64,000 bases of DNA. It comes from a virus. The number at the start of each line of letters is the position of its first letter. Position 1 is the first letter of the stretch. The notes beneath the pieces were generated by a model. It worked only from the letters and a program-made list of their open reading frames with translations, did not search any database and was not told where the DNA came from. The translations under genes were made by a program, and so were the position numbers. The stretch lies in the IMG/VR virus record IMGVR_UViG_3300021962_000041, positions 1 to 64,000 of that record; one strand, written 5' to 3'. This document shows positions 1,935-54,327 of the stretch, piece by piece.

Positions 1935-3326
1935 TCACATGAGGTTTGCAACCTTGACTCTTCTGTAGTAAACGTTTGAGTTTCTCTCCAGAACACCAGG
2001 ATTGGTGAGGGTAGCACCTTTTGCGAATGGGTTGGCAACAATTCCATAACGGGTCTTGAAGCCAATTTTTGGCTGGAAGGTGTTCTCGCCAACGGCACGT
2101 ACCATCTGTAGAGGTACATATGGGCAGTAGAAGATACCAGCGTCATAAGGTGAAGAACCCTTATAACCAACAACGTAGTACTGGTTAGCAGATACGTTAG
2201 CAGCGTATGGATCGATGTATACGCGGAACTTACCAGCAAGAACACCAGCGAAGGTGTTACCAGTGTCATCAACGTTCAGGTTAGCATTGAGTGCAGGGGT
2301 GTAATCGAGGACGCCAGCCATGGTCAGTGCTGAAGCAACGTCTGCTGAGCACATGATCATGTTGCCCTTCCCTCTACGAGTTCTTTGTGCGATTGCGTTA
2401 GCATCGCGCTCGATTTGGAAGATAAGACCCTTGAACTTCTCAACTGACCAACGACCATTGGAGTCAACGTCGAGGTCGAAGGTACCTGCGGTTGCGGTAT
2501 TGACGGTAGCGCCAGTTTCTGCAACGTTATAGATGGTACGAATAACTTCGCGGTTGATTTCAGCAAGAATCTCGCTTGAAAGAATGTTAGCGAGTTCTGC
2601 TTCTGCATTCAGACCATGAATTGCCTTCAGGTCTTGTGCAAGCTCGAGTGAGTACTCGGCTTTCAGAGCTCTTGACTTAGCAGTAACGGTGACTTTCTCG
2701 ATTGAGAATGCCATCTCGTTGAATGCACCACCAGTTTGGGTGCCGAGGTCTTCTGCGTCATCGGTACGCATACCCTGACCTACGTTGTAGGTAGTGCCGG
2801 TTGCGCTAGCGATTGGGTTGAGTAGACCAGGATTGGTTCCTTGCTGAGCAGTAGTACCAAGACCAACCGAAGAATCGGTGAATCCATCGGTAAGACCCAG
2901 AGCAGCATTCTGACCAGAGAATGCGGTATTTGCTTCATCATAGAATGCTTCAGCACCAGACTGATTGGTGTAGCGTGAACGCATTGCAAAGATGAGTCCA
3001 GTAGGTCCGTTCATTGGCTGAACGCCTGCGAGGTCATAAGCGACCAGGTTAGGCATTGCACGACGGATGAGGCTGATTAGAACAGGGTCGAAACCAGCGA
3101 CAGGTGATCCAGCATTTGCACTGAAACCAGGGGTTCCAGTTGTTTGAGTATTTACGGTTGGAGCTTCGTATAGAAACTCACGCTCTTCACGAAGAGCTCT
3201 TTCTTGGTTCTCCAGGAGAACGGCAGTTACCATTCTACGATGTGAATCTTTGATTGGATCAAGACCTTCGTAGTCTAGGAGGGGTGCCCACTTCTCCTGC
3301 AGATGTTCTTGGTTGAACATTTGCAT
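1935..3326 (-). CDS. g23: Major capsid protein gp23
   Basis: LISLIRRAMPNLVAYDLAGVQPMNGPTGLIFAMR, KSRALKAEYSLELAQDLKAIHGL, FYCPYVPLQ, FQPKIGFKTRYG. Confidence 0.99.
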   Translation of the reverse strand: MQMFNQEHLQEKWAPLLDYEGLDPIKDSHRRMVTAVLLENQERALREEREFLYEAPTVNTQTTGTPGFSANAGSPVAGFDPVLISLIRRAMPNLVAYDLAGVQPMNGPTGLIFAMRSRYTNQSGAEAFYDEANTAFSGQNAALGLTDGFTDSSVGLGTTAQQGTNPGLLNPIASATGTTYNVGQGMRTDDAEDLGTQTGGAFNEMAFSIEKVTVTAKSRALKAEYSLELAQDLKAIHGLNAEAELANILSSEILAEINREVIRTIYNVAETGATVNTATAGTFDLDVDSNGRWSVEKFKGLIFQIERDANAIAQRTRRGKGNMIMCSADVASALTMAGVLDYTPALNANLNVDDTGNTFAGVLAGKFRVYIDPYAANVSANQYYVVGYKGSSPYDAGIFYCPYVPLQMVRAVGENTFQPKIGFKTRYGIVANPFAKGATLTNPGVLERNSNVYYRRVKVANLM

Positions 3327-3374
3327 TGTACTTTACCTCTTTGGAAAATTTAGTTTGAACTTATAATCTAAAAA

Positions 3375-4538
3375 TCACTTTTTAGAAACTCTATTCAGAG
3401 TCTGAAGATATGATTCCATCAGACCAGAAACTGGTGCCGATTGCTCAGTTGTCTCTTCAGAAATTGACTCTGAATGATCTCTTTGAGTACCAGTTTTTGA
3501 TGGGAAATATGATTCCCTCAATGTTACTAGCTTCTCACGATAGTCTGCCTCACTTTCAAACTCAACATTTTCGGCAAGAGAAGCGAGTTTGTCCTTCTGA
3601 GAAAGTGCAAGACCCTCAGTGACTTCTGCAAAGATTACATCAGCAACTGACTCGGCTAATCTCCTATTAAGAGCAACATTTCTTTGAATTTGCTCGTTGA
3701 GTTTTTCTTCCATTTCATCAAGTTTATCTACCATGCTCTCGATTACATCATATCTATCTTCAGGGATTGTTACATAATGATCTTCAAAAAGACCCTTCAT
3801 TCCTTGTAGGAATGATTCTGTCATTTCAGTCTTAAGACCGTGCTCAACTGCGAGTTCGTTCTCTTGAATCCACTCGTCAGCAACATACTCAAGATAAGCA
3901 TCTAGTCTGCTGGTTAACTCTTCTCTAATTGATGCAACTTGCTCAACTAGAGACTCTTCGTATGAAGATTGAAGTTGCTCTTTGATTTCAGCAACTCTTG
4001 TTTTAATTGCTGCTTCAAAGATGGTGCGTGCTTTCTCTTGGAATTCCTCGGAAAGCTCTTCACCTTCAAGAAGGGCATTGACATCTTCTTCGATGTCAAA
4101 CTCTTCTTTCACTTCATCTTCATCTTCCTCTTCTTCTTTCTTGGCTTTTTTCTTGCCTTTTCCTTCTTCTTCCTCGTCTTCGTCGGCAGCTTCAGCAACT
4201 ACCTCTTCACCTTCCTCTAGCTCTTCTTCGTCAACAAGATCCTCTTCTTCGTCAGTCTCTTCCTTGACTGCACCAGAGGCAAGTTTTGCCATAGGATCTG
4301 CAGATTTTGCACCCTTGTTAACTACACTCTTGACTTGAGAAAGAGTTTTGCCAGGTGTGCCAAGTTTCGCTGAGTCATCAGTTGACTTGTAATTTTCTGG
4401 AGTAGGGCCGCCTAAATCTTCCCAACCACCACTTTGACCATCAGGAATACCTGTGGTTAGTTTGTGCATTGGTTCGGCAGATGCAGCTCCTTTGGTTACT
4501 ACGTTTTCCATTTCTTGTAAATTTCTACCAACGGACAT
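3375..4538 (-). CDS. g22: Prohead core scaffolding protein gp22
   Basis: Acidic coiled coil, LSEEFQEKARTIFEAA, YLEYVADEW; between g21 and g23. Confidence 0.95.
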   Translation of the reverse strand: MSVGRNLQEMENVVTKGAASAEPMHKLTTGIPDGQSGGWEDLGGPTPENYKSTDDSAKLGTPGKTLSQVKSVVNKGAKSADPMAKLASGAVKEETDEEEDLVDEEELEEGEEVVAEAADEDEEEEGKGKKKAKKEEEEDEDEVKEEFDIEEDVNALLEGEELSEEFQEKARTIFEAAIKTRVAEIKEQLQSSYEESLVEQVASIREELTSRLDAYLEYVADEWIQENELAVEHGLKTEMTESFLQGMKGLFEDHYVTIPEDRYDVIESMVDKLDEMEEKLNEQIQRNVALNRRLAESVADVIFAEVTEGLALSQKDKLASLAENVEFESEADYREKLVTLRESYFPSKTGTQRDHSESISEETTEQSAPVSGLMESYLQTLNRVSKK

Positions 4539-29099: not shown

Positions 29100-32000
29100 T
29101 TAATCAAGAAGTTTTCTAAGCGATCCAGTGCTTCTCAATCCATAATCTCTTCTTTCTATTGATGGGAAAGTTGATAATCCAGAATCAACTCTTAAACCAC
29201 TAACTGAAACACCGATTGCAACAGATCCCCTTACCAGAGGACTCAATTTACCCCAAGAGAATCTTCCAACAAAAGATCCAGACGTTGTTATTCCCGTAAT
29301 ATTACTATTTGATCTAATATTAGTGATTATTTCTGCATTAGTTGCAAATCTAGTAATACTATGTACATAGTAAATATTATTTAAGAATGTTGTTCCAACT
29401 CCAACGGGTGAAGCATCTCCTGAGTCTACCGAAGTAACTCCTCTACCAACATTTGTTTCCGTAACATAAATTGGATAACCAACCTGCAAGCTACTAAAAT
29501 CTCCACTGGTAATCTTAAGATTTAATTTAAGTGCCAGAGGATGTCCTCCCGTTCCACTGGTAGTTGTTATTCCAGTAACAATTCCAGCAAAACCTTCAAT
29601 AACACTAATATTCCTCACCCTTTCTTTTAGTGGAGCAGGTGTTGGTACCAAAACTTTTGGAGCAATTGTATACCCTAAACCTGGATTTGTTATAGTAATT
29701 GGAGTTGTCAATCTTCCATTAGTAATAGTTACTGTTGCGGTAGCTGTTGTTCCTATACCAACTCCAATATTTCGTGGGCTAGTAATTGAAACTGTTGTAC
29801 TAACTCCAGTATAACCAGATCCAGCATTAACAATGGTTAATCCAGTAACTCTTCCTGTGGTAGTATTAATAGTTGCAGTCATTGATCCAGTTGAATAACC
29901 AGTATCATACACTATTAATCCACCAACAGATTCTATAATTGTTGCGGAAGCATCTTCTTCATAATTAAAGAATCTTGCATCATCAACAAAAAGTTCAGTG
30001 GATGATGATGTAAAATCTTTTATAATTCTTGCAACTGGATAAATTTGAGATTCTAAAGAATCTCTAGTTTTATACACTTTTTCGCCATTAATAACTTTAT
30101 CAATTTTTTGCTTTTTCCATGCTATTTCACGATAATTATCATCATCTATACCCAGTCCAGCATAAATATTGGTTTCTACACTATCTGATGCTGCAACTAA
30201 AGTAATAGTTCTATCTTCTTGTTCCCTTGATGTTGCAATTCCAGAATATGCAGATAACTTAACACTATCGCCAATTTTTAAAGTTTCCTCTACATCTATT
30301 GTGACACTATCAGACTCTTTTGTTCCATTGTAGAAGAATATTGAGATATTATCTTCATATTCTGGCGCCTGAGTGAATGTGAATGAAGTACCACCTGTAA
30401 ATTCATAAGATTCTCCGGGACTTGAAGAACGTTGTTGATAAAGATTAAGAGTAAATTCTCTAATTTTATTAATGATGATTCTGCATCTTTATCATTCGTT
30501 TCAAAACTCAATAATTTACCAGCAAAAGCAAGTGGGAATCTCTTTCTCACTCCATTTTGAAGTGGTTTGATAGAATCAATATAATCAAATTCTCCAAGTT
30601 CCCACGATGCCAATTGATCACTATAAGTTTGTAAAACTGTAATACTAAAATCATTTATTGGACTTGCCAGTCTAGAATCTGTGACTAGACCAACTGGTTT
30701 AAACACATCACCAACTCTAAATCCATATCCAGGTCTAGAAATACTAAAATTAGTTACTTGGAATAGAGAACCAGGTGCAACTGTTTTGGATGTAGGAATT
30801 GTACCAGTTGCAATAGTTGTTGTAATAATTCCAACAAAAGATCCTATCGCTGATGCAACGTTTGCACAATCTCCATTATTTGGAGTTAAATTAAATATGT
30901 CAGTTGTCGCATAAACACCAGCAGTTCCAGAAATATCACCGATAACTGTCGAATCAATAATTTGAGTCTCGTTTGTGTATACATTTGGTGGCTCAGTTCT
31001 AGATGTAGGAATTGTACCAGTAGAAATTGTAGTTGTAATAATTCCAACGAAAGAAGTAATTGCTGATGCAACATCCTGACAATCTGGGTTTGCTGGATCT
31101 GGTGCAATGGTTAAATCCTTATATTGAGTTGCAGTCGTCATTCCAGAAATAGTTACTGTTTCATTTCTCATGACTTGAATCATGATGTCTCTAGCTTGAT
31201 TGAAAGCATAGATTGATTGTGCTTCTTCTCCTGCCAGTAATGTTGGATTGGTTTTGTATATGTTAGCAGCATCCCAAACTTTGCTATTTCCACCATATCT
31301 CAAGTTATAAACAATAGTGTTTGTAACTGCCATAATATCATCTTTACATTCCTGATTTCCTCCAGGTATTGTAAAACCTGTATAGAATGCCAGCATTCTA
31401 CCTACTGCAATATCGGCAATAAATGTTCTATTTGCTATGATGAGATTTGATGCATCATAAAAACGACCAGAAACTATTCTATACTTAATAATTTCTTGGT
31501 TTCTCATTGCCTGAATAGCAAGATCTCTTGCTTCTCTAAATGCAAAAATCGCTTGTTGTTCTTCACCATATAATAGTGCTGGATTTATTCTGTATAAATT
31601 TGCAGCATCCCAGACTTTATCATTTCCACCAAATCTTAAATTATGCGTGATTGTTTTTAAGACTGATTTAATATCATCAACACAATCCGCAGTTCCAGTT
31701 GGGACAGAGAACGTTGGATAGTAAGATAACATTCTTCCAACAGCAACTTCAGCGATTAATTGCTTATTGCTGTCAATAAGATTTGCAGCATCATAGAATA
31801 CACCATCATAAGCAATATTATCATTTGCACCAACTTTAAGGGTTAATAAAGTGTTTAAACCACTATCTGTTGTAGAACCAAGTCCAACTCTTGATACACC
31901 AACAATTGGTAGATTTTCATAAGATGGTTCTTTGATGTTAATTATTGTGTTTGTAGCAGCATATCCAGTTCCTGAACTATTGATTGTAAATATAAGTGTT

Positions 32001-35000
32001 CCACCTGCACCGACAACAGCACTAATAGATCCAGAATTACCAGTTGGAGATGTAATTGCAATAGAAACTGGACCACCATAGTAACCAGATCCATAATTAT
32101 AATCTTTCCATTCAATACCAACAGAACATGATCCAAGTCCAGTGTAAGTATGTGGAATTGAAGAAATGCCACCATTAACAACAATTGTTGTTCCACTAGT
32201 TCCAGCTAAAGATCTAAATATACCTCCTTCTGGTCCTGCCCCAGGATATGGGAAGATATTTGTTGTAACACCTACCGTTGCAGTTCCTCCAGAAACATAA
32301 GTATGGTTTACTGTCGAAACACCTACATTCAAAACAATAGTAGTTCCAGCTGTACCAGCAATAACTCTATAAACATCAAAAGTTCCTTGGAGAGTATTTT
32401 TACTACTTTGTGGGTAAGCATTACCTAAAGTTCCAATTCCAGCAGGATATGGGAACCTTGTTGTTGAATAACCTATTGGATTTCCTGGACAAGAAAGAAT
32501 AATATTTGCTAATCTTACATATTTTCCTGCTTTTAACCCATGATTTCCATTAACTGTAATAGTTACTATTCCAGCATTTCTATCATAAACAAGTCCATTT
32601 ACATTAAATGTTGAAATTCCAGTCCATGAATTACAAGAAAATCTTAATCCAGAAAGTCCAAGTGGATCACCAACTCTCAGATTATGGGTACCATTCAACA
32701 CAAAAGTTGCAATTCCAGTTGCATTATCATAAGTTCCTGTAACTATTCCAAGAACTTTTGTTGGTGCAGAATATGTGCCAATAGCAACAATAGTTGATAT
32801 TCCACCTGAAGCGTTTGTGACAATTCCAATTTGAGCTGGATAAAGAGGTGCAAATCCAAGACCTTGTGTAGATCCGATTGAAATTATGACTCCACCTCTA
32901 GGAAGTTGATTTTGATTTACATCATCTGTGGAAATGATATTTTGTCCATTTGAAGAAGTAATACCGGAGAAAATAATACTACTAATCCCAATAGTACTAG
33001 AAAAATATGATGATGTATTATAACCAACTGCATATTGACTATAATCTTGAACTACATTATCATATGGTAATAATTCGCTATTTGGAACATATGATACTGG
33101 GGAATCAAATTGTTTAAAGGTATAAACATTATCTGGATTATTTGCCGTAGTTGGAGTCTGGAATATACCATTTAAGAATAAGAAAGCACTTCCAGTTTGT
33201 ATTCCTGTTGTATTAAGTCCAGAAACTGTTGTTGTATAAGTTCTTCCTACACCAGTTAAAGATGTTGAAATGTCATCAAATATTCTGTTTTTTGAGTAAT
33301 CTTTTCTGAGATAAACTCTTCCACCAAAAACTGCTCTAGGATATGGAACATTATTTGAATTTTTCTCAAGAGTTCCTTTTCCTGTCGGTGCAGATGTGAA
33401 GTAAATAATACTATTAGACCCTATATTGTAATTTCCACTATAAACTCTTACAGTACTACCAATTCCATGTGAAGTGCTAATAGATCCAAGATATGCTCTT
33501 GTAACTTCAATATTGGTATATGTGCCAAAACCAGTTACTTCAGCACCAGAAGTAGTTGCAAAACCAACATTAACAATTCTCATAATTTCATCATCAACTT
33601 TTATTGTTGAATCTGGAATAAAATCTCTAATGGTTCCAAGAGAGAGAATTGATGTAGAATCTCCAATCCCAGCTTGTAAGGTTGTGTTTACTGGAGTGAA
33701 TGCTAATGGATACTGAACTACCCCGTCAATTGTTATAAGAGTTTTTTCAAGTTTTGTGCTCATTTGAAGTTCATGAGCATTTCCAGATCCGAGACTTGTA
33801 AAAGTAACATAAATTCCAGCTAACGCATCAGATTGTCTAGTCGCTAATCTAAACCTATCTTCATCAATTCTAATTGCATACACTTCTGATGGTAAAATAT
33901 CAGTGCTAATTCCTGATTGAGTCAATGAAGTATTAATTCCAACCGCTGTAGATCCAATTCCTATAAAAGTTGATCCAGGGGTGTAAATTAATTTTTCGCC
34001 AGTGTTAAAGAAATGTCTTTCAATTGTAATTATTCCTGTACCTGGATTGAGGAAAGTTGTGCTAGATGGTGAAAACTTTTTACTAAAAATGGAAACACCA
34101 TCAGAAGTTAATTTAAATGTCGTTTTATTTGATCTTGAACCGTTGACTGCATTGTAAAAAAGTAATTCCATACTTTCTCTTAATTTACCATATTCTAGTG
34201 ATGGATAATTATTAGCAAAGTCACTTTCACTATAAATGACCTCATTGAAAGAACTGATTTGTAAAGTTGCAGTAATTCCAGGATCTCTATAGAATCTCAA
34301 TTCTGCTGGTGATGTTGAATAATCTACACCAAAAGTTCCAATACCAGATGTTGATCCAATTGAGACGAATGGATATTGTGTCATTACACAATTTCCATTA
34401 TTGTTTGCAACAAGAACTTGATGCAATGCACTTGTATTACCGTAAGATACTCTTACTAATGATTTTATAGTCGATACTTCAGTTTTATCAAATTTAAATA
34501 TTGAAGTGCTGGCGATAGAGACTTTTCTATAATCCGATTCAAATTTAAATGATCTCTCAGTGCCTTCAATTTGACCATTTAAAATAGATCTATAAGTTCC
34601 TACACCCACTGCTGTAGTACCAAAACCAACTACTCTACTTCTAACTACAACTTCTCCATTGTAAGTTGGATTTTCATAAGTTAAACTAAAAGTTCCAGCA
34701 TTTAAAGATGCCCTAAATGTACCTATTGGATTATATGAATTATTATCTACATTAATAGTATCAAAGAAATAATCAGATTGATAAGTATTTGTTCCATCAT
34801 GAGTTATATAAAGTTCAACAATATTTTTTATCTGCTCATTATTTTTAGCATAGACTTCGGCAGTCACATACATGGACTCTAATTTATTTGATTGAGCAGA
34901 AATAATCTCTGTTGTAATACCAATAGTTGCAGAATCCACTGATCCCGAAAGATTAATAAATCCAACATTAATTGTACCAATGCCAGTAGTATCAGCACCA

Positions 35001-38000
35001 AAATAAGTTTTTAAAATTTTGATATCATAATCAATATCGGTATAATTGGTTGGATAGAATCTAAGAGTTCTATCGCCAAATTCATTTACATATCCTTCAA
35101 TATCAACTGGTTGATCAGTTGTTGTAAAAATTGAAGATTTTTCAAATGTTATTAAATCAGTTGAACGCCCCTTAACAAGAATTACTTCTGTTGCCTGAAT
35201 GTTAGTTGATGCTGGATCAATGATTTGAATCAAAAATCTAGCAAACGAATCTTCAAAAATAGTTTCTATGTAAGGATTTAATGAAGATCTAGAATTTGAA
35301 AATTGTGGACTAATATCATCAATTTTAAGAACATTGTTTGTTCTACATTCAATGTATCCAGCTAATTTTCTATTTTTGAGTTTTATATCCTTAGTTCTAC
35401 CTTGGATAACATTATTATCAACACCCAAATCAAATCCATATATTGTATCTACACGATCTTCATTAATAAAATCAAATGTAGTTATTGACTCAACTGGTGT
35501 TACAGTTACTCCTGCTCCAGCAACATCTTTAACTTCAGTATCTGAGAAATTTTTTAATCCAACGGTGTGTAATAAAGAATTGACTGGGTTGATTAATTTT
35601 TCAAATTCTATTGGACTCTTTATTGTATATGATAAAGACTGATAATAATCATTATCTGGTAGAACTTGATAATCTTCGTTTAATTTGCCAATATTGTCCA
35701 ACCACCCAAGATCTTGCCTTGCAGAATAATTAATTTCAAAACGAGCATTATTATTAATAAAACTATCAACTCTTGCTCTAGTACCACTGAAAGTACCAAT
35801 AATTAAATCACCAATTTCTAATTCATATCTTCCAACAGATTTAATAAATGTTGTCCTATCCTCAGTAACAACTAAGTCAGTTTCAATATATTCTCCATTT
35901 GTAAAGACTAGCAACTTCTCACCAAGACTAAATTTTGTCGATCCAGTAATGACATCAAATCTAGGATAATCTTCATATCTAACAAAAGATGCAAATGTAG
36001 GGGTAGTAACTGCTATTCCAGCATTTGTTGTTATACCAGTTAGGTTAAATTCTAATTCTGCTGGGTTCGTATTTCTATATGCAGTGATATCATAAAATTT
36101 AAATTTGTTGTCAATTGCATTAAATCCATTTCCACTAGTTCCATATTTTTCAACACCTTCTACAAAAATCTTATCTCCAACATTTACAATATTTTGACTA
36201 TATCCAGCAATAGGTGTTTGAATAGTGCAAGTTACTATTCCTGTTGGTTGATCGTAGTCAACTTTACTAATAGTAAACCCATTAGTATTATTAACAGCAA
36301 ATAAAGTATGCTTAGAAGAATCCAAACCATTTGGAGCTTCAATAATATTAATTTTTCCTATACCAGAACCACCTACAGATGGTGTAATAATTCCATTATC
36401 TATTGCAATACCTTCAGAATTTGCCAGGATAAGATCTGGTGCTGATTGATAGTATCTACCTCCATATGTTATATCAATAGATTTTACAATATTTGTATCA
36501 AGTACAAAAAATGTTGATGGAACTAGTGCTTGTGGACGTAAAGTTACATCAGATGGATACTCAAATCCTGGATCAACAATTCTTACCTGATCAATTTTTC
36601 CTATCGTGTTAGATGTTGTATATACTTGAGCTCCTGTGCCATTTAGAGATTCAAATCCACTAATTACAGGTAGTTTCTTATAACTAACTCCACCCGATGT
36701 CAATGATAATCTACCAATCCCCCCACTAGCAGTTTTGGAAAATGTTGTATATGAACAACTCTCACATTGAGTACTTGAATATGAAGTTGATTCTGGAATT
36801 TTTGTTAAAGAAATTTTAAATTTATCATTAGTAACATCAAATACGGAATATCTACCATTATACAAACTATCAATATAACTTATCTTTGATGCATTGGTAA
36901 CATCTAAATCCGAAGTTGATATAAATCCAGATTTTTCTAATGCATAGAAAAATACCTGGGGCATTCCTGCATCATATCTGAGAGTTATTTTTGCATCGCT
37001 ACTAATTCCAATAGTTCCAACACCAGAAACTACAAAATTAGCAGTATTTCCAACGGATATAAATTCATTCTTAAATTGAGAATCATAATAGAATTTTAAA
37101 TTATATCCACTTAATGTAGAATCTTTTACATCAAATACAATATCATTATTTCTTACAATATTCAATTGTGGATTTATTAAAGATATTGTATGAGAAGTTC
37201 CACCAACAGAATTTATATTTACAATTGAAGGTGGATAAATTTTGTTATCGTATAAAGTTTCAGTAAGATTAAATGTATTTTCGTCTAAAACATAAACATA
37301 ATAATCACCAGTTTGTAATCCAGAAGCTACTGTGGTAACTGGTTTATAGTAAATTTTATCACCATTAGAAAATCCATGTCTTGCAATAGTAATACTATCC
37401 TTTGCAGTATTGATTCCCGATGAACTAAATGTGATCTGATTTACAAGTATTCTTTGACCTATCGTATCATACTTAAGTCTAATTGAACCAGATGTACCAA
37501 CACCAACAGATTGATTTGATTTAATATCTAAATTGATAATATCTCCATTTTTCAAACCATGGCTAGTTGATAAAGAAACCAAAGTTGTAACTCGATTTAC
37601 ATCAGATGTTACTTGAGTAAAGTCTGATCTAATTGCATAACCAAAATTATTTGACCCAAAACTAGCAAAAAATAGACCTTTAGTTGATGTTGTTAATCCT
37701 ACCTGGGTTACAATTCCAATATGATCATCAGATTGTTTTACAACGTAAAATGGTTCCCAATCTCCAGAACTTAAAATTGGAGTAGGACTATCAGCGGGAG
37801 TTTTTTGTACGAATAATGATGCTTCCCCTAGTGGTTTTTTAATTAAAACTTTTTGATTTGTTTGGAATGGGTGATTTGGGAGTCTAATACTTTGAATTGG
37901 AATTGAAGTAGTTCCTGTTAATTCGCCTATTCCAATAGTATAAGTAACAGATGTACTAAATCCAACTGAAGTACCAACACCTACAGATTCGGATGGATTG

Positions 38001-41000
38001 AAATAAACAATATCATTTACCTTTGATTCAAATTTTGGAGTTGATATTGGTAATGAGAAATAAGTTGGGACAAGTTCAACTTTTGCGGATAAAGTATGAG
38101 CATATCCAGATGTGTTACGAGTAACTCTTAAGATTTTTCGATCATCAAATTTATTGATAATCGTCATTGTCTCAGTTCCACTAACTTTTACAACATCACC
38201 AACATTCATATTTTCTGGAATACTAGAAACGTAAATATCAGTAATGACACCAACAATAGTTGTTGATGGAATTGCTTTATATAAAAATGTTTCTGATGTA
38301 GTAATTCCTACTTTATAATTTCTACCAAGAACATTCTTTAATGATGTGCTTATTCCACTTAAATATACGTTGTCAGATTGATTAAAACTATGTGTTGTTG
38401 AAATATAACCTTGAATTTCATTTTCACTTTTCCAGATTAAGATAACACCCTGATATTTCAATGTACTAGTTTCTACACTAGTTATTTCTCTTCCATTTAT
38501 CAAAGAAACTTGTGCCGAAGCTCCAGATCCGCCCGTATTATTATTATTAAAAATCGCAGCATCTCCAATTTTATAATTATCTCCAGCAGTAATAATATCT
38601 AATCTATCTACTGATCCTCTTAATACAGATTCTACAATTGATGTTTGGTTAATGAGTTCATTTGATTCAACAATAAAGTCACTACCAGAATATTGGTCAG
38701 ATGTATTGTATGGTAATGTATTTCTAATTATTTCAGTTCCTTTAAAATCATAATCTTGGTTAATAATATAAGTTTCGTCTAACAAATTAGACCTAAAAGA
38801 ATCACCAAGAAAATATGGAAATACTGGTTCAATTGTATTTGTTGTTGCATTTACTTTTAATGTCGTAAAGTATGCATATGTTCCTAATGGAAATTCTGGT
38901 GTCTTACAAAATCTTCCATTTGATTCATCTAGATCTCCAGAATCGTTATATGCATAATCTTCTATAAAAAATCCACTTGAAAAATCTGAAGGTCTATTAA
39001 TTATATTATTTGTATTCAATACATAACTAGAAGATAATAATTTTACAGGAGAATCATTCACTTGTGGATCTTCATAACCATATGGACCATAAATTGGATT
39101 GCCGTCCAACGCCCAACCAATTATAGGTGAGTGATCACTTCCATCATCATCAAAATATTGTGATCCTATATTTGTAGAATAACCAACAACACAATATTTT
39201 AAATTTGTTATAGATTTCTTTAAAATGTCTGCTCCATATCTGGCAAAAGTATTAACCCTAAGACTTCTAACAATAGGGTCTAGTGAAAGTTCAGATCCAG
39301 CTGATTTAACTGTTATACTAGTAGTATCTTGAACATAGTTCACACCAGGATTTATTACTATAACTTGTGAAATCGCATTGTTAACAATAACAGCTCTTAA
39401 TTTTGCACCAGTTCCTTCACCACTAACAACAAGATCTGGCGTAGAATAGTATTCTCTACCACCACTAAGGACTTGTACGGAATCAATTTTTCCATTTTTA
39501 ATATATGTCTTTAATTGTGCATCTTTACCTGTTTTTACTGTAATTAATGGTTTTTTATGTAAATTTAAAATACTAGAACCATAATTAGTTCCTGCCTGAT
39601 ATAAGTAAATATCATTTACAACCCCACGAATAATTGGAGTGGCAGTTATAATACCAGATATACCATCACGATATTTTACATTAACACTAATACTGATGGG
39701 TGGATATTCAAAAACTTGATATCCAGTACCTTTTGATTGAAACTTAATATAATTTTTTCGTTCATAATTTGAAGTTATTGTTCCACCGATTCCAGCATCA
39801 GCAAGTCTAAACTTATTATTAGTTATCTTAATAACTTGATATTGTTTAGAAGTAGATAATCCTGAAATTATAGTTGGAAGAGTTGAACCTACACCAACTG
39901 CTGCAGAATAAACAATTTTTTCACCATCATTGAACCCATGATTTACAAAGTTAATTGTATTATCACTAGTGGATATACCCGATGGAGAAACTCTTAATTT
40001 TCTATTTGAATATCCTTCTCCAGAGGATAAAACATCAATACGAGTTACAGTATTTGCAGATTCTAGAAGTCTGAATTTTTGGAATCCAATATTACTTGCT
40101 GTAGTAAATCCAATTGTGTTAATTCCAGAATTGAAATCCTTTTGGGTTCTATAAAGACGTATTGTTTTTGGACCTGTTGTTTGTGCATAATATACAGATC
40201 CATTTTCTAAGTATTCAGTCTTTATTCCAGTAGTATCATTAGATCCTCTAAATGTTCCGATACTTATTGGTGGACTACCATTTTTATCATAAACTAGTGC
40301 TTGACCAGATTTAATATTATGATCTTTCAAGAAACTTAAATCATCTAATGTTACATCCAATCCACCACCTTGTGTTGATGGTAAAGCACTAAAATCTAAT
40401 TCTCTATATCTTTTTGATGTTATTGGTTTTAAAATACACCCAGATCCATTTCCACCAGTTATTGTCACTGATACAGCATCATCAATATCAAAATCTTGAG
40501 GATCAACAAATACTTCTTTTACCGATCCAGTAACGACTGGTTGTACGAGTGCAGTAGTTCCAATTCCAGGAGAAGAAACCTCAATAAGTGGTGGGTTAAT
40601 AACATCATAATTTGAACCAGTATTTAAAATATTGACATCTTCTAAAGGTCCAAAATAAATTCTATCATTTGATTTATATGAATTTATTTCTACACCATTA
40701 ATTAATATACCAACAGTTTCAGCTTCCGTTTTTGTTCTAGTTGAACGTTGAATGTCTGGAAATAAAGGAAACTTTTTAAGACTTTTTTGTGGACCAATTT
40801 TTAAGTTATTTTGGAAAGATAATGTAAATGTATGGTTTCCAGTTCCCGTATCTAAAGTGCTAAATTCAATATAGTCGTCAGATGGGATGAAAGATCTTGA
40901 AGTATAAAGTTTGATTTTATTAGACTCTGCTAAAACTCTGACGTAATATAGACCTTCATCTAAACCAGGGATAGATTGATTTTCTGGTTTATAATAAACC

Positions 41001-42838
41001 TCATCACCAGTTATAAATGGAACACTAGTTTGGAATGATAATACAGAGTACTTTAATGTCGATGGATCATAATTTTGAACTCGATCACCATTTGCTTCTC
41101 CTAGTGAAATTGCAGATAAATTAGTTGTTATTGGGTATGATGGTAATGAATTTGAAGCAACATACATGTATTCATCATTTTCATTATATACATTTTGAAC
41201 GTCGGAAGTAATGACATTATTACCATATTGTATTTCCGCACCAGAACTTGTTGCTTTATTTAAATTTCTACGAATATCATACTCTTTAAGAGGATCTACA
41301 ATAAATCCAGATAGATTATTGAGAAGAATTTCTTTTGTTGACTTATTAATATTAGATACTATGGCGCCAGCATATTCAACAATTTGAGTATTTCTTCTCA
41401 AAATTTCAATTGTATCACCAACTTTGAGAGAAGATTTATCTATGTCAGAATAGAGTAAAAATGTACTACCAGAAATTCCTTTTACTTGATATCTAACCGA
41501 AGTATTGTATATCCATGTATTGGAGAAAATTTGCTTTTTAGTTTTAAATTGGTCAGGATTTTTTATTATTTCACCGAGATTTTTAACATAGATTACCTCT
41601 CCTTCATCGGTAAATGAAATATCTGATACTGGAACAAACTTTGATAGTACACCTGTTATTCTTACTTCTACTTTTTTTGTAAGGTCGCCATCTTCATAAC
41701 CATACATTACCTCATCAAATCTAATATCTTCTGCGGGTGATATTGCTGACGTTATACCACTACATCCTAAAAATTGATTAATTGTTTTATCAGTGTAAGT
41801 AATTGTATTTCCGCCACAAAATACCGTTCCTGATTTTGGAAACTCAACAGTAGAATCAACACTAATAACTTCTGATCCTACAGGAATATTTCCAATCACC
41901 CTTGTTTTTCCTGGAACAGTGAAAGTTCCTTCAATAAGAGCATTTTCACTAAATCCTACAAATAATGATAATTTGTAATATACTAGATTATTTTTTGATA
42001 TAATCTCAACCTCAGAAACAGATGCTTTTGTTGCAGGATCTGTTGATTTTCTAATGGTTTGTCCAACTAATTTTAATGGGTCTCCAGAAATTCTTTCTAC
42101 AAGAAGAGTTTCTCTTCTAATGTATTCTGCAGACGATGGTTTAATTAGATATTTTTCTAAATCTACTATTCTTGGAGTTACTCCATACAATATATTAAAA
42201 AGAATTCTAAAAGATTCTTTAGTTCCTTTAGATGCGTAAAAAGATCTAGCTTCCTTTATAAAATTACTAACATCTAAATTTTCAACAAAAGTTAATTCTT
42301 CTAGTCCAGGAGTAAGAGAATATTTTACTTTTTTATAAAACTCTTGTAAAAAGAGAGCACTGAGATTTTTTACATCAGAACCAGATTCGTGTGAAGATGC
42401 TTCAGATGTAGAAAAAACTAAATCATTTCTTTCTAATTCTTCGTAATAAGTTGTTATACCACTAAAACCACGTACACATCCAGTAAATGTATTGGTCGTG
42501 ATTCCAGAGTATGTAATAATTTCATCATCAATTTTTAATAGACCCCAATTTAATGGGAATCCTTTTGTGCTTTCTACAACGATTACATCAGATTCGCTTG
42601 TTACAGAACTTTCTAACGTTGTTTCACCACTTACTACTTCTGGAGTTAAATTATCCAGTTTTAAATATTGGTCTAAATTCTCTACAATATCAATTGATCC
42701 CCCAGGAATTTCCTGAGAAATGTAATATTGCTTTAAGAACTCAGCAGCTTTTGGAGATTCTGAAAGAATAAATTCTGGAAGTTGATTTTCTACAATTTGG
42801 TGAATTTTTACTCTCGTTTCAAATCCCGTTTTTATCAT
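29100..42838 (-). CDS. g7: Baseplate wedge initiator gp7-like giant protein (~4580 aa), one gene with a 1-bp frameshift near 30417
   Basis: QLPEFI...FLKQYY, FYASKGT, HSPIIGWALDGNPIYGPYGY, DNDYYQSLSY. Track ORFs 30296..42838 and 29100..30077 join through an open -1 frame (GESYEFTGGTSFTFTQAPEYED...GEKVYKTRD); lies between g6 and g8. Confidence 0.88.
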
Positions 42839-47408: not shown

Positions 47409-47437
47409 ATCATACAATATTATGTAGTGGTTGTCAA
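47409..47437 (-). promoter_or_regulatory. Sigma70-like promoter TTGACA-N17-TATGAT
   Basis: -35 at 47432-47437, -10 at 47409-47414. Confidence 0.75.
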
Positions 47438-47607
47438 TTACTCCGTTCTGTAATGATAACCTCATTACCTTCTAGGGCAATCCGAACTTCCGTGTCTTCG
47501 TACCACTCTAGTTCATTGATTATCTCTTCAGGTATTGTTATAAAATACTCCCCCGTTATTGGATCGACTTGTACGGGCACAAATTTATCTCCGGAATTTT
47601 TTCTCAT
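47434..47607 (-). CDS. AbrB/MazE-like small DNA-binding protein (57 aa)
   Basis: FITIPEEIINELEW.EDTEV.I.LEGNEVII swapped-hairpin pattern. Confidence 0.65.
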   Translation of the reverse strand: MRKNSGDKFVPVQVDPITGEYFITIPEEIINELEWYEDTEVRIALEGNEVIITERSN

Positions 47608-51787: not shown

Positions 51788-51912
51788 AGATCGGTTGAAT
51801 TCCGATGATCTTCGTGCTAATAGGGAATTATATCATTATCAATAAGATCTTGTTATTGAGAATCAATAAGGACTAGTAATTGAGAATAAGATCCAATGTT
51901 CGAACTGTCACA

Positions 51913-52071
51913 TCAGAAGATATCGCTGTAATCTTTGATGCTAACATTGACATCCTCATCACCTTCTAGGTGTAGGAGTTCACGCCAATTAATACCTTCT
52001 AGTTCTAGATCTTCATAACACATAAGATCTAGTGTAACTCGTACCATGCGCTTTGCGTGTGTGGTAGGCAT
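51913..52071 (-). CDS. Hypothetical protein (52 aa)
   Basis: Not in track. MPTTHAKRMVRVTLDLMCYEDLELEGINWRELLHLEGDEDVNVSIKDYSDIF. Confidence 0.65.
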   Translation of the reverse strand: MPTTHAKRMVRVTLDLMCYEDLELEGINWRELLHLEGDEDVNVSIKDYSDIF

Positions 52072-52101
52072 AAGAATCTCGTGTATGTGTACTAGATTAT
52101 A

Positions 52102-52251
52102 TCATGCATAATGACGATATGCAAGCGTTTCGTAATCTTGCCCATCTCGTGCATAATCCTCGTCGAGATCTGCATCTTGTGCATAATACTCGTCGAGATC
52201 GTATGTGTAATCTGATGCGTATGTATAGTCGAGATCGTAGTCGTCGTACAT
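52102..52251 (-). CDS. Tyr/Asp-rich micro-protein (49 aa)
   Basis: MYDDYDLDYTYASDYTYDLDEYYAQDADLDEDYARDGQDYETLAYRHYA, downstream of a sigma70-like promoter. Confidence 0.55.
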   Translation of the reverse strand: MYDDYDLDYTYASDYTYDLDEYYAQDADLDEDYARDGQDYETLAYRHYA

Positions 52252-52410
52252 AATGCTCGTCGAGATTTGTGTGATGCTTATGTATTGTAGCATAAAGCTC
52301 GACGAGATTGCAAGCCCTTATGATGCACACGTCTCGTCGAGATTCATGATAGTATATATACACTCTTGTCGAGATTTATGTGCTTCTCGTAACATAAGTC
52401 TCGTCGAGAT
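52151..52410. repeat. Array of 8 direct repeats, core CTCGWCGAGAT (extended RCATAANN-CTCGTCGAGAT)
   Basis: Cores at ~52159, 52189, 52225, 52256, 52298, 52333, 52365, 52400; period 30-42 bp. Confidence 0.9.
52284..52313 (-). promoter_or_regulatory. Sigma70-like promoter TTGCAA-N18-TACAAT with extended TG
   Basis: A repeat copy fills the spacer. Confidence 0.55.
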
Positions 52411-52437
52411 TCTAGCACGAACTTATAAGAATGTCAA
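52409..52437 (-). promoter_or_regulatory. Sigma70 promoter TTGACA-N17-TAGAAT with extended TG
   Basis: Near-consensus; fires into the repeat array. Confidence 0.8.
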
Positions 52438-52467
52438 GGTCTGGGAATTTCTGGGCGTCCCCGGGGG

Positions 52468-52496
52468 TTGACAAACTGCGCGTCTTATGATACGCT
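52468..52496 (+). promoter_or_regulatory. Divergent sigma70 promoter TTGACA-N17-TACGCT with extended TG
   Basis: Back-to-back with the previous promoter; fires into the AT-rich tract and GIY-YIG gene. Confidence 0.65.
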
Positions 52497-52676
52497 GGCA
52501 AAGGTTGCAATAAGAACCAGTATTTTCTTACTATTCTCAATAAAACCTTTTATTTATTCTCATTTACAAAACGCTTATTGAGAATCACCAAATATTTAAT
52601 CTCACAATAACAATCATAACTATCTAAAATAACATATAAGATATATACAATAATTAAAGTGTTATCTAAAATATAA

Positions 52677-53486
52677 ATGTCCCAAGGAATCATCTACCTC
52701 ATCATCAACAAACAAAACGGACACAAATACGTTGGACAAACCACCCAAGGAATGAATAAAAGGTGGCAACAACATATACAAGAAGCATTGCGAATGAGTG
52801 ATAAACCACTACATCGTGCTATGCGTAAGTATGGCAATCACAACTTTATGATTAAAGAAATAGATGAGTGTGATGAAAGTTTATTAGATGAAAAAGAACA
52901 ATATTGGATAGAACAATATAATACCTTTGAAAGTGCAGAAGGTTATAATGCAACAAGTGGTGGAAGTCGTCCAATCTTTAGTAATGAAACAAAACAAAAA
53001 TTAAGTGAAATAGCATCTAATAGAGAAAGAACAGAAGAAGAAGTTGCTAATATAAAAACTGCTTTAACTGAAAAAGCAAAAGAAAGAAATTGGGGATTCT
53101 TAACTGATGAGAACAGAGGTAATGGTAAACACTCTGGCATCAAGATACAAGGACTGAATATCGAAACAGGTGAAATAAGAGAATGGGATAATGCCCGTGA
53201 TGCTGCAGAAGAAGTTGCTGGTGATCGTAATAAGAACAGCAATATCTTATTAAGTGCTAAGAAAGGATATAAGTGTTATGGTTATAGATGGAAACTACTT
53301 GAACAAAAGAGTAAGAAAAAAGCAGTCAAAGCAGTTAATAAAATAACATGGCAGGAACATCATTTTGAAAGTATTGCCGATGCGATTAGAAAAGTTGGTG
53401 GTAATAGCAGGGGGACTGGACTAATTAAATCATTAAGAAGTAATGGACGTTATACTTGGAAAGGATTTATGTGGTTTTATATTTAA
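52677..53486 (+). CDS. Free-standing GIY-YIG (Seg-like) homing endonuclease with NUMOD1-like C-terminal repeats
   Basis: GIIYLIINKQNGHKYVGQT, RW..H, E.YWI..YNT..GYN; two repeats EWDNARDAA..GYRW and FESIADAI..GFMW. Confidence 0.9.
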   Translation: MSQGIIYLIINKQNGHKYVGQTTQGMNKRWQQHIQEALRMSDKPLHRAMRKYGNHNFMIKEIDECDESLLDEKEQYWIEQYNTFESAEGYNATSGGSRPIFSNETKQKLSEIASNRERTEEEVANIKTALTEKAKERNWGFLTDENRGNGKHSGIKIQGLNIETGEIREWDNARDAAEEVAGDRNKNSNILLSAKKGYKCYGYRWKLLEQKSKKKAVKAVNKITWQEHHFESIADAIRKVGGNSRGTGLIKSLRSNGRYTWKGFMWFYI

Positions 53487-53520: not shown

Positions 53521-54327
53521 TTATGATGTTTTCTTTGGTCTACCTCTCTTCTTTGGTTTTGGTTGCTCTTCTTCTACCTCTTCATGAACAGTTTCAAGAG
53601 TATTCAATGCAATCTCATCAATAATAGAATCAATCAATTGTGCTGTTTCTGTATCCTCTTCAGTCTGTGATGATTCTTCTTCCTCTAATGTATCTGGGTC
53701 AATACCTTGTGCAATTAGACGCTCTCTTTCCATCTTTCTCCACATTACTAATTCGGGAGAATCATCCTGTAGAGCAACATGATCAACAAAACCTACACTT
53801 TGCATTTCCTGTTCTGCAACCATTTGACGATGTGCTAATACCTCTTCCTCAGTATAATTGGGTTCTTCAGGTGTTGGATCAAACTCCCACATTGAACCAT
53901 TCCAATACCAATACAATGTACGACTATCAGGTTCTGGCATTGTCCATTTATACTTTGTTCCTAATTCCTTTTGATGTGGGAATCGTGGGCGATCAATTTC
54001 TGGATCTGGATTCAGAACCTTTTCCTTAACTTGTTCAAATCCAGATTCTAACCAATCCTGTTCACTAATTGTCCATTTCTCAATAGGACATGATTCTAAT
54101 GAGAACCTTACCTTATAAGCAAGGAAACATCCACAATGTCTACAACGTCCTTGTTTACCATCAAAGTAAGGACATTCTCTACAAATATCTAAACGTTGAT
54201 TTTGAATCTCTTGACTCACAAACAACTTTTCATGTCCATTGGCAAATGCTTCTTTAATCACTTCAAATGTGAACTTTGCCAGATTCTTACCTTGTTCTCC
54301 TAATGAAGGATATTCCTGTTCAGCCAT
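53521..54327 (-). CDS. Cys-cluster protein with acidic tail (268 aa)
   Basis: RLDICRECPYF...CRHCGCFL..KV....SCP..KW; C-terminal KKRGRPKK. Confidence 0.75.
   Translation of the reverse strand: MAEQEYPSLGEQGKNLAKFTFEVIKEAFANGHEKLFVSQEIQNQRLDICRECPYFDGKQGRCRHCGCFLAYKVRFSLESCPIEKWTISEQDWLESGFEQVKEKVLNPDPEIDRPRFPHQKELGTKYKWTMPEPDSRTLYWYWNGSMWEFDPTPEEPNYTEEEVLAHRQMVAEQEMQSVGFVDHVALQDDSPELVMWRKMERERLIAQGIDPDTLEEEESSQTEEDTETAQLIDSIIDEIALNTLETVHEEVEEEQPKPKKRGRPKKTS

Follow-up and report, generated by a model that had tools for sequence, protein, structure and literature searches.

The locus studied here raises the question of what a short palindromic repeat does when it recurs eight times across the promoters and the coding sequence of a small gene in a T4-like cyanophage. 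The locus lies in a 64,000-nt stretch of viral DNA (IMG/VR record IMGVR_UViG_3300021962_000041, positions 1 to 64,000), further referred to as the window; all coordinates are positions in the window unless another record is named, and the parent contig contains 114,868 bases. A first-pass annotation, made from the sequence alone, had proposed an origin or an operator cluster. Our analysis favors the latter: the repeats are probably operators, arrayed for a sequence-specific DNA-binding protein that controls the promoters in which they lie, and we assign to this reading a probability of roughly 0.58. Among the observations behind it are enrichment of the sites beyond chance, their overlap with core promoters, and their conservation beyond that of the flanks. 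The operator, or switch, part of the earlier proposal fits best, given the sites on the −10/start region, in a spacer and by the start codons at conserved promoters, while the origin part did not gain support.

Repeated sites and promoters

The array comprises eight copies of CTCGWCGAGAT between 52157 and 52410, six exact and two degenerate. The cores start at 52159, 52189, 52225, 52256, 52298, 52333, 52365 and 52400 in a single orientation, and the core-to-core intervals are 30, 36, 31, 42, 35, 32 and 35 bp; the eight copies and all seven intervals are exactly those listed in the first-pass annotation. The palindromic 9-bp core CTCGWCGAG that it had described is exact in six copies against 0.03 expected, and none of 100 shuffles reached six. 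Both degenerate cores (ATAGTCGAGAT and CTTGTCGAGAT) are altered in the left half only, and GTCGAGAT is retained on the plus strand in all eight sites. A scan of the whole contig found neither GTCGAGAT nor the core outside the array. When flanking bases are included, the sites are close to the 13-bp palindrome ATCTCG-W-CGAGAT, three of them matching it at 12 of 13 positions. Sites 4–8 are non-coding, and all of them are located upstream of the start codon of a small acidic gene. A longer open reading frame (ORF) would cover one of these five sites, but in a different frame.

The promoters P1–P3 are, judging by their boxes, strong host-type (σ70-like) promoters. P3 was read from the sequence; the promoter scan missed it, its −35 box matching the consensus at 3 of 6 positions only. 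It is embedded in the final codons of the acidic gene (LAYRHYA-stop). The promoter claims of the first-pass annotation were reproduced: one site (site 8) lies on the −10/start region of the TTGACA-N17-TAGAAT promoter, another (site 5) fills the spacer of a second promoter, and a divergent TTGACA-N17-TACGCT promoter, PR, is present on the plus strand. The hexamer CGCAGT, considered as a second operator set, was rejected, as it occurs in just one copy, within the PR spacer. Outside the array, a perfect dyad TTATTGAGAATCAATAA is found at 51853–51869 (minus-strand region 51827–51869), approximately 20 nt upstream of a TATAAT box preceding the next small gene, and half-dyads occur at 52533–52543 (ATTCTCAATAA) and 52575–52585 (TTATTGAGAAT) in the AT-rich tract behind PR. 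The features are listed in Table 1.

Table 1. Features of the control region and of its neighborhood (window coordinates).
Feature	Coordinates	Strand	Description
Site 8	52398–52410		GTCTCGTCGAGAT, 12/13 palindrome positions; covers the P1 −10 box at its final two bases and also the predicted P1 start
Site 7	52363–52375		Left half degenerate, CTCTTGTCGAGAT
Site 6	52331–52343		GTCTCGTCGAGAT; ~20 nt upstream of the P2 −35 box; position kept in 60 loci
Site 5	52296–52308		AGCTCGACGAGAT; occupies the P2 spacer; sole site with inverted center base
Site 4	52254–52266		Non-coding; ends 3 nt upstream of the acidic-gene start codon; consensus AATCTCGACGAGcTtATG, 99% conserved
Site 3	52223–52235		Left half degenerate; Asp-Leu-Asp, codons 6–8 of the acidic gene
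Site 2	52187–52199		DLDE codons within the acidic gene
Site 1	52157–52169		DLDE codons within the acidic gene
Reverse half-site ATCTCG	52144–52149		Encodes Arg-Asp of ...YARD... within the acidic gene; Arg codon CGA in 50/63 versions
Reverse half-site ATCTCG	52076–52081		Precedes the next start codon, that of the downstream gene, by 4 nt
Promoter P1	52409–52437	−	TTGACA-N17-TAGAAT, 11/12 consensus matches (promoter scan)
Promoter P2	52284–52313	−	TTGCAA-N18-TACAAT; highly conserved
Promoter P3	52096–52124	−	TTGCAT-N17-TATAAT; predicted to drive the next gene
Promoter PR	52468–52496	+	TTGACA-N17-TACGCT, TG at extended −10; spacer conserved among relatives
Small acidic gene	52102–52251	−	49 amino acids and stop, MYDDYDLDYTYASDYTYDLDEYYAQDADLDEDYARDGQDYETLAYRHYA
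First downstream gene	51913–52071	−	52 amino acids, phrog_12516, unassigned function
MazE/AbrB/SpoVT-type-fold protein	47434–47607	−	57 amino acids; 4.6 kb downstream, same strand as the acidic gene
AT-rich, G-poor tract	52500–52676		Between PR and the GIY-YIG gene
GIY-YIG homing endonuclease gene	52677–53486	+	Free-standing; mobile occupant of the slot behind PR

Conservation among cyanophages

Relatives of the locus were sought as viral contigs with two sites 10–35 bp apart. Paired sites were found in at least 118 viral contigs, with at least 633 cores in approximately 1 Mb. This family spans phages infecting Prochlorococcus and both marine and freshwater Synechococcus. A megablast search of the region against the phage collection gave no match.

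A family consensus was built from 60 non-identical related loci. Relative to the acidic-gene start codon, its sites are located at −13, −55 (in the P2 spacer), near −88, −118 and −153, and the consensus P2 is TTGCAT-CTCGTCGAGATTTATGC-TATAAT. Beyond the −153 site follow P1, a GC-rich block and the divergent PR with its conserved spacer. The site columns are 90–99% conserved versus 30–60% in the spacers.

Among cultured phages, S-SRM01 and S-T4 carry a syntenic array without any GIY-YIG gene. The P-SSM2 array precedes PSSM2_098 and includes variants such as TCTCGACTAGA; its sites likewise overlap core promoter elements. Complete genomes contain one to three site clusters within a few kb, and in some relatives as many as three or four are separated by a few kb. 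The three clusters of S-SRM01 all fall within 5.5 kb (85.5–91.0 kb) of its 240-kb genome. S-T4 has one cluster, which is seen twice through the terminal duplication of its record (MH412654.1, ~9.5 kb, 1–9.5 kb equal to 171.57–181.08 kb, array included). The extracted S-T4 locus also contains an unannotated ORF for a DUF6171-like Cys-rich protein at approximately 3150–3577 on the minus strand. The secondary clusters of relatives are found in other small-gene leaders, with three full palindromes at a spacing of approximately 33 bp. The array was not found in five model cyanophages (Syn9, S-PM2, P-SSM4, S-RSM4 and P-HM2). In S-CAM7 (KU686212.1; 2080–2290 of the extracted locus) the corresponding place holds an analogous system of two clusters with another repeat, CGCAGYATAT. 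Of its 12 genomic copies, 10 are in the clusters at 54.6–54.75 and 56.9–57.0 kb, before the phrog_12516 gene of this phage.

The acidic gene beneath the sites

Three of the eight sites lie within the acidic gene, and thus the repeats might have no function as DNA sites at all, being codons of an acidic repeat protein together with decayed duplicates, or else a homing target of the GIY-YIG endonuclease. The gene itself is real. In related loci 63 different nucleotide versions were found, in which length changes always comprise whole codons, and its conserved Arg is encoded by CGT, CGC, AGG, AGA, CGA and CGG across the versions; this indicates selection on the protein. The protein follows the pattern MYDDYDLDY...DLDE...LAYRHYA. 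A search with it retrieved at least 608 clusters, every one unnamed, and no Pfam family was matched by the coding region 52105–52251. Three copies are indeed DLD(E) codons of this gene, the flank of the coding copies (..TTATGC, matching Asp-Tyr-Ala) recurs at the non-coding ones, and a GIY-YIG gene adjoins the array in 21 of 45 loci.

However, the five non-coding copies form the best-conserved columns and have fixed places in promoters. The first-pass annotation had listed conservation solely as DLDE codons among the outcomes that would refute its proposal; this description applies to three copies and fails for the other five. Moreover, secondary clusters are found far from the acidic gene, the array occurs without the endonuclease in about half of the loci and in S-SRM01, S-T4 and P-SSM2, and the synonymous codons of the coding copies are fixed to the motif. 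The Asp-Leu-Asp of codons 6–8, which lies outside the search pattern, is encoded by GAT CTC GAC in 48 of 49 cases. An unbiased codon set was formed by 19 loci retrieved solely via the AbrB-like protein described below and not via the motif. In this set DLDE is encoded by GAT CTC GAC GAG in 21 of 23 instances, and Leu in the motif context by CTC in 52 of 66 and never by CTT; for other Leu codons of the acidic gene, CTT is used in 15 of 20. The codon counts are inflated by shared ancestry, yet nearby synonymous Tyr, Asp and Arg positions vary in the same alignments. We therefore consider the absence of any DNA-site function very unlikely.

The S-SKS1 phage provides a further view of the same element. 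At least nine direct ACGAGAT half-sites are found in its counterpart gene, in the orientation opposite relative to the gene, and several of them encode Ala-Arg-Asp-Thr. Since the half-site is there carried by the opposite strand and coincides with different amino acids, the element seems to be read as duplex DNA rather than as sense RNA or a peptide motif. Together with the codon usage this argues that the sites are under selection as DNA, and makes the acidic gene a clear example of a protein-coding sequence in which overlaid DNA sites dictate the codons. In the extracted S-SKS1 locus (1690–2080), a five-fold tandem repeat of approximately 24 nt, CTCTTATAAACCTTCTCTAATA, is located just upstream of the array.

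The same observation bears on a role at the level of RNA, whereby the repeats would form hairpins in the P1/P2 leader RNA (an attenuator or a processing site) or serve there as sites for a translational repressor. The sites adjoin two start codons. The consensus P2-spacer site exactly complements its neighbor (52296–52343), yielding a potential 16-bp stem conserved in the 60 loci, and the inverted center base of the P2-spacer site is itself conserved. Site pairs flank conserved hairpins in relatives, and the leader in the window folds with −41.6 kcal/mol. The z-score of this fold (−2.1) is modest, though, and in S-SKS1, with its half-sites oriented oppositely, the sense RNA differs. Many secondary sites are perfect palindromes and count on both strands, while the P2-spacer site and the sites upstream of P1 are outside the shorter transcripts. 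We regard an RNA element as having a rather small chance of being correct.

The endonuclease slot and the AT-rich tract

The first-pass annotation had placed a GIY-YIG gene after the AT-rich tract. This gene (52677–53486) matches Pfam PF01541 with E 6e-12 and PHROG homing-endonuclease families with E-values down to 7e-33. Homologues with 24–69% identity occupy the same slot, divergently oriented to the acidic gene and 360–670 nt upstream of it, in 21 of the 45 unique loci having enough flank. PR is kept in 35 of the 45 loci regardless of the endonuclease, and in 11 of the 19 endonuclease-less loci with PR no ORF of at least 40 amino acids is found within 450 nt behind it. These data indicate that the GIY-YIG gene repeatedly uses, or was captured behind, the conserved predicted promoter PR. 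The suggested check of whether the array persists in relatives lacking the gene gave a positive answer: it does so in about half of the loci and in S-SRM01, S-T4 and P-SSM2, and hence the array is independent of the GIY-YIG gene. In S-SRM01, an HNH endonuclease gene adjoins the third site cluster.

The AT-rich, G-poor DNA behind PR and its direct repeat were also seen as described earlier: region 52501–52700 has 75–76% A+T and 6–8% G (63% A+T in the contig), and TATCTAAAATA occurs at 52621 and 52663. Here the tract is the leader of the mobile endonuclease cassette. The conserved right-hand neighbor of the control region is the gene at 53521–54327 (minus strand), encoding a Cys-rich DUF6171 protein whose middle part is acidic and whose C-terminal tail, KPKKRGRPKK, is AT-hook-like. 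Farther away, a single ORF of 4180 amino acids (30296–42838, minus strand) is located upstream of baseplate-type genes; it is probably a giant gp7-type baseplate protein as in P-SSM2.

The tract and PR are the features that suggest a replication origin, with the repeats as initiator iterons and PR directed into AT-rich non-coding DNA, where it would produce an R-loop primer as at T4 oriF/oriG; in a variant, the array would be comparable in function to T4 oriE or to the lambda ori inside gene O. The single array in this contig fits such a role, and so do the eight same-orientation copies partly within a coding gene, the AT-rich tract (75% A+T) adjoining the array, the conservation of PR and its spacer in 35 of the 45 loci and the lack of an ORF behind PR in the 11 of 19 endonuclease-less loci. 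On the other hand, no initiator, helicase-loader or Rep-like gene was found by Pfam and PHROG searches among the flanking genes (45.2–54.3 kb; the flanking genes mentioned further are the same), and the gene overlapping the array encodes a 49-residue acidic peptide. Cumulative GC skew has no inflection at the locus, although in T4-like phages skew is weak evidence. As many as three or four clusters occur in relatives, several of them before ordinary small genes, the sites are placed exactly on promoter elements, and the AT-rich tract belongs to the mobile endonuclease cassette. Finally, Syn9, S-PM2, P-SSM4, S-RSM4 and P-HM2 must replicate, yet they lack the array. An origin is thus unlikely in our estimate. 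We give a similarly low credence to a combined origin and switch, in which CGAGAT iterons would be bound by a small phage protein, possibly the MazE/AbrB-fold one, and PR would prime replication by an R-loop. Should the origin reading be true, T4-like cyanophages would have their first defined origin, and it would account for the repeated settling of homing endonucleases in the slot.

As an alternative, the first-pass annotation had suggested that the array is transcribed and processed into RNAs of approximately 35 nt next to a nuclease. Such a CRISPR-like array, with unit-length RNAs acting together with the adjacent nuclease, has in its favor the regular 30–42 bp spacing and the nuclease gene nearby. 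It is contradicted by the data. The repeats are just 11–13 bp long versus the criterion of at least 21 nt, the would-be spacers are conserved among relatives as promoters and an ORF, about half of the loci lack the homing endonuclease, and the flanking genes searched include none that is cas-like. We consider it extremely improbable.

Proposed regulation and the candidate binding protein

Under the operator reading, a DNA-binding protein would recognize the half-site CGAGAT, usually paired as ATCTCG-W-CGAGAT. Eight to ten sites over approximately 335 bp would be occupied by this putative regulator, covering three tandem leftward host-type promoters predicted to feed the acidic gene and the small genes behind it. 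The bound positions would be the −10/start region of P1, the spacer of P2, the acidic-gene start codon and, with a half-site, the next start codon; three sites and a reverse half-site inside the acidic gene would lie upstream of P3. Occupancy would block RNA polymerase, and the transcription unit would be shut off or delayed. In related phages the same sites, which recur in the leaders of one or two other small genes within a few kb, may extend this control. From the arrangement we infer protein binding, the identity of the binder and the sign of regulation, likely repression. Reportedly (Doron et al. 2016), middle genes of T4-like cyanophages are driven by host-type −35/−10 promoters, and early genes use a separate 'novel regulatory element'. 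If this scheme of middle-gene promoters is right, the array could time host-type promoters.

The only protein with a DNA-binding-type fold among the flanking genes searched is the 57-residue product of the gene at 47434–47607. Its AF2 model has pLDDT 82. Nearly all top Foldseek matches of the model are MazE, AbrB, SpoVT or VapB, several of them DNA-bound structures; superposition on 1ub4_C gives TM 0.74 and a root-mean-square deviation of 1.4, the Foldseek E-values being weak (0.04–2). By the model and these matches the protein has the swapped-hairpin fold. A profile of the AbrB-like family gave no match to PDB sequences. The S-SRM01 homologue is annotated as 'DNA-binding domain-containing protein'. 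Homologues are found in few cyanophage lineages (S-SRM01, S-SKS1, S-T4, P-SSM2/5, S-CAM7, Sf-CH5/8 and ACG-2014f), and every array-bearing cultured phage carries one; that of P-SSM2 is PSSM2_102. In all 23 contigs picked via this protein and having at least 8 kb of upstream flank, a site cluster is located 1.4–10 kb upstream and none downstream. Conversely, the protein is encoded in four of five large array-bearing contigs.

Several observations weigh against the operator reading or against this binder. Helical phasing of the sites is weak (resultant 0.3 at 10.5 bp), and the same-orientation bias and conserved center base are unexpected for a simple symmetric dimer. No clear σ70 promoter was seen in the leaders of the secondary clusters; therefore promoter occlusion is not the whole role of the latter. 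The Pfam match of the 57-residue protein to MazE_antitoxin (PF04014, E 2.8e-4, 21.2 bits) is below the gathering cut-off of 24.7, and the protein is strongly acidic. Synteny within a single clade confounds its association with the array. A close homologue (group A) is present in Sf-CH8 without the array, ACG-2014f has a distant one (group B) without the array, and in S-CAM7 the group-B homologue is encoded 127 kb from the CGCAGYATAT arrays. Considering these points, we retain the MazE/AbrB-fold protein as a tentative candidate for the site binder, whose role is doubtful.

Covariation of the motif with AbrB subfamilies was not clean, S-CAM7 having another motif and ACG-2014f and Sf-CH8 having no array. 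The phrog_12516 product was also considered as the binder and rejected. It is very acidic and has no fold match (AF2 pLDDT 81), its gene is present without the array in DSL-LC03, and the array-bearing P-SSM2 has no phrog_12516 match. Its N-terminal KR-V-V-TL stretch resembles a ribbon-helix-helix strand.

The binder could instead be a protein of the host. In this case the array, once replicated, would serve as a decoy or sink titrating a host regulator or defense factor, with the acidic DLDE protein as a partner or a DNA mimic. Conservation of the sites across phages of Prochlorococcus and of marine and freshwater Synechococcus is compatible with that, as are the very acidic neighboring early proteins and the lack of a convincing phage-encoded binder among the flanking genes searched. 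But the motif differs by lineage (CGAGAT versus CGCAGYATAT in S-CAM7), which better fits a co-evolving phage-encoded binder. A pattern scan of bacterial genomes was uninformative: among the 120 matches listed, hits were scattered, mostly in high-GC bacteria, and none was in a cyanobacterium. We hold a decoy function to be quite improbable and return to the operator array.

Comparison with known systems

To our knowledge, T4-like cyanophages have no counterpart of the T4 MotA/AsiA switch, and the timing of their gene classes is only partly known. The locus offers a concrete entry to this timing through a control region that is conserved and lineage-specific and whose sites are defined. This region is present in more than 100 environmental contigs and in the culturable phages P-SSM2, S-SRM01, S-T4 and S-SKS1, and it comes with a testable candidate binder. 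The different repeat at the same place in related lineages points to a co-evolving protein–site pair. In the literature searched we found no published description of the array and no matching account of a cyanophage promoter, operator or origin, although an earlier mention is possible. New in this study are the codon analysis of loci chosen without regard to the motif, the argument drawn from half-site orientation in S-SKS1, the endonuclease slot, the presence and absence data for cultured phages, and the first candidate binder.

As a probable operator array the locus belongs to a known kind, of which it forms a variant by four undescribed features: the eight to ten sites, their codon-dictating extension into a gene, the lineage-specific replacement of the motif, and the recurrent endonuclease slot. 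The closest models are the operator arrays in phage promoters of lambda (OR/OL, bound by CI and Cro) and P22 (Arc/Mnt). As in these, short palindromic sites lie in back-to-back promoters, on the −10 box, spacer and start, and the regulon is local, with one to three clusters near the regulated genes. In contrast, there are eight to ten sites over ~335 bp here instead of three, they extend into a coding gene and shape its codons, and the phage is a strictly lytic T4-like one with no repressor gene identified beside the operators.

Arrays of short direct and inverted half-sites are bound by the omega protein of pSM19035, and operators of MazE/AbrB-type antitoxins are comparable. The likeness consists in a 6–7 bp half-site, palindromic in most relatives and direct in S-SKS1, and in the gene for a small MazE/AbrB-fold protein in the neighborhood. 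Unlike those of omega, the copies here are 21–43 bp apart rather than contiguous, and there is no toxin partner.

Of the T4 origins, oriE combines iterons with RepEA/RepEB, and oriF and oriG combine a middle promoter with an unwinding element and an R-loop. The locus resembles them in having, within a T4-like genome, repeats beside a promoter that faces AT-rich, often gene-free DNA. It differs in lacking a RepE-like gene, in the several clusters per genome of relatives, in the position of its sites on core promoter elements and in the absence of the array from many T4-like cyanophages.

With the early-gene element reported by Doron et al. the array shares a conserved phage-specific motif in a small-gene region of cyanomyoviruses. 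The palindrome described here is a different sequence, accompanied by full −35/−10 promoters and located at one to three loci per genome.

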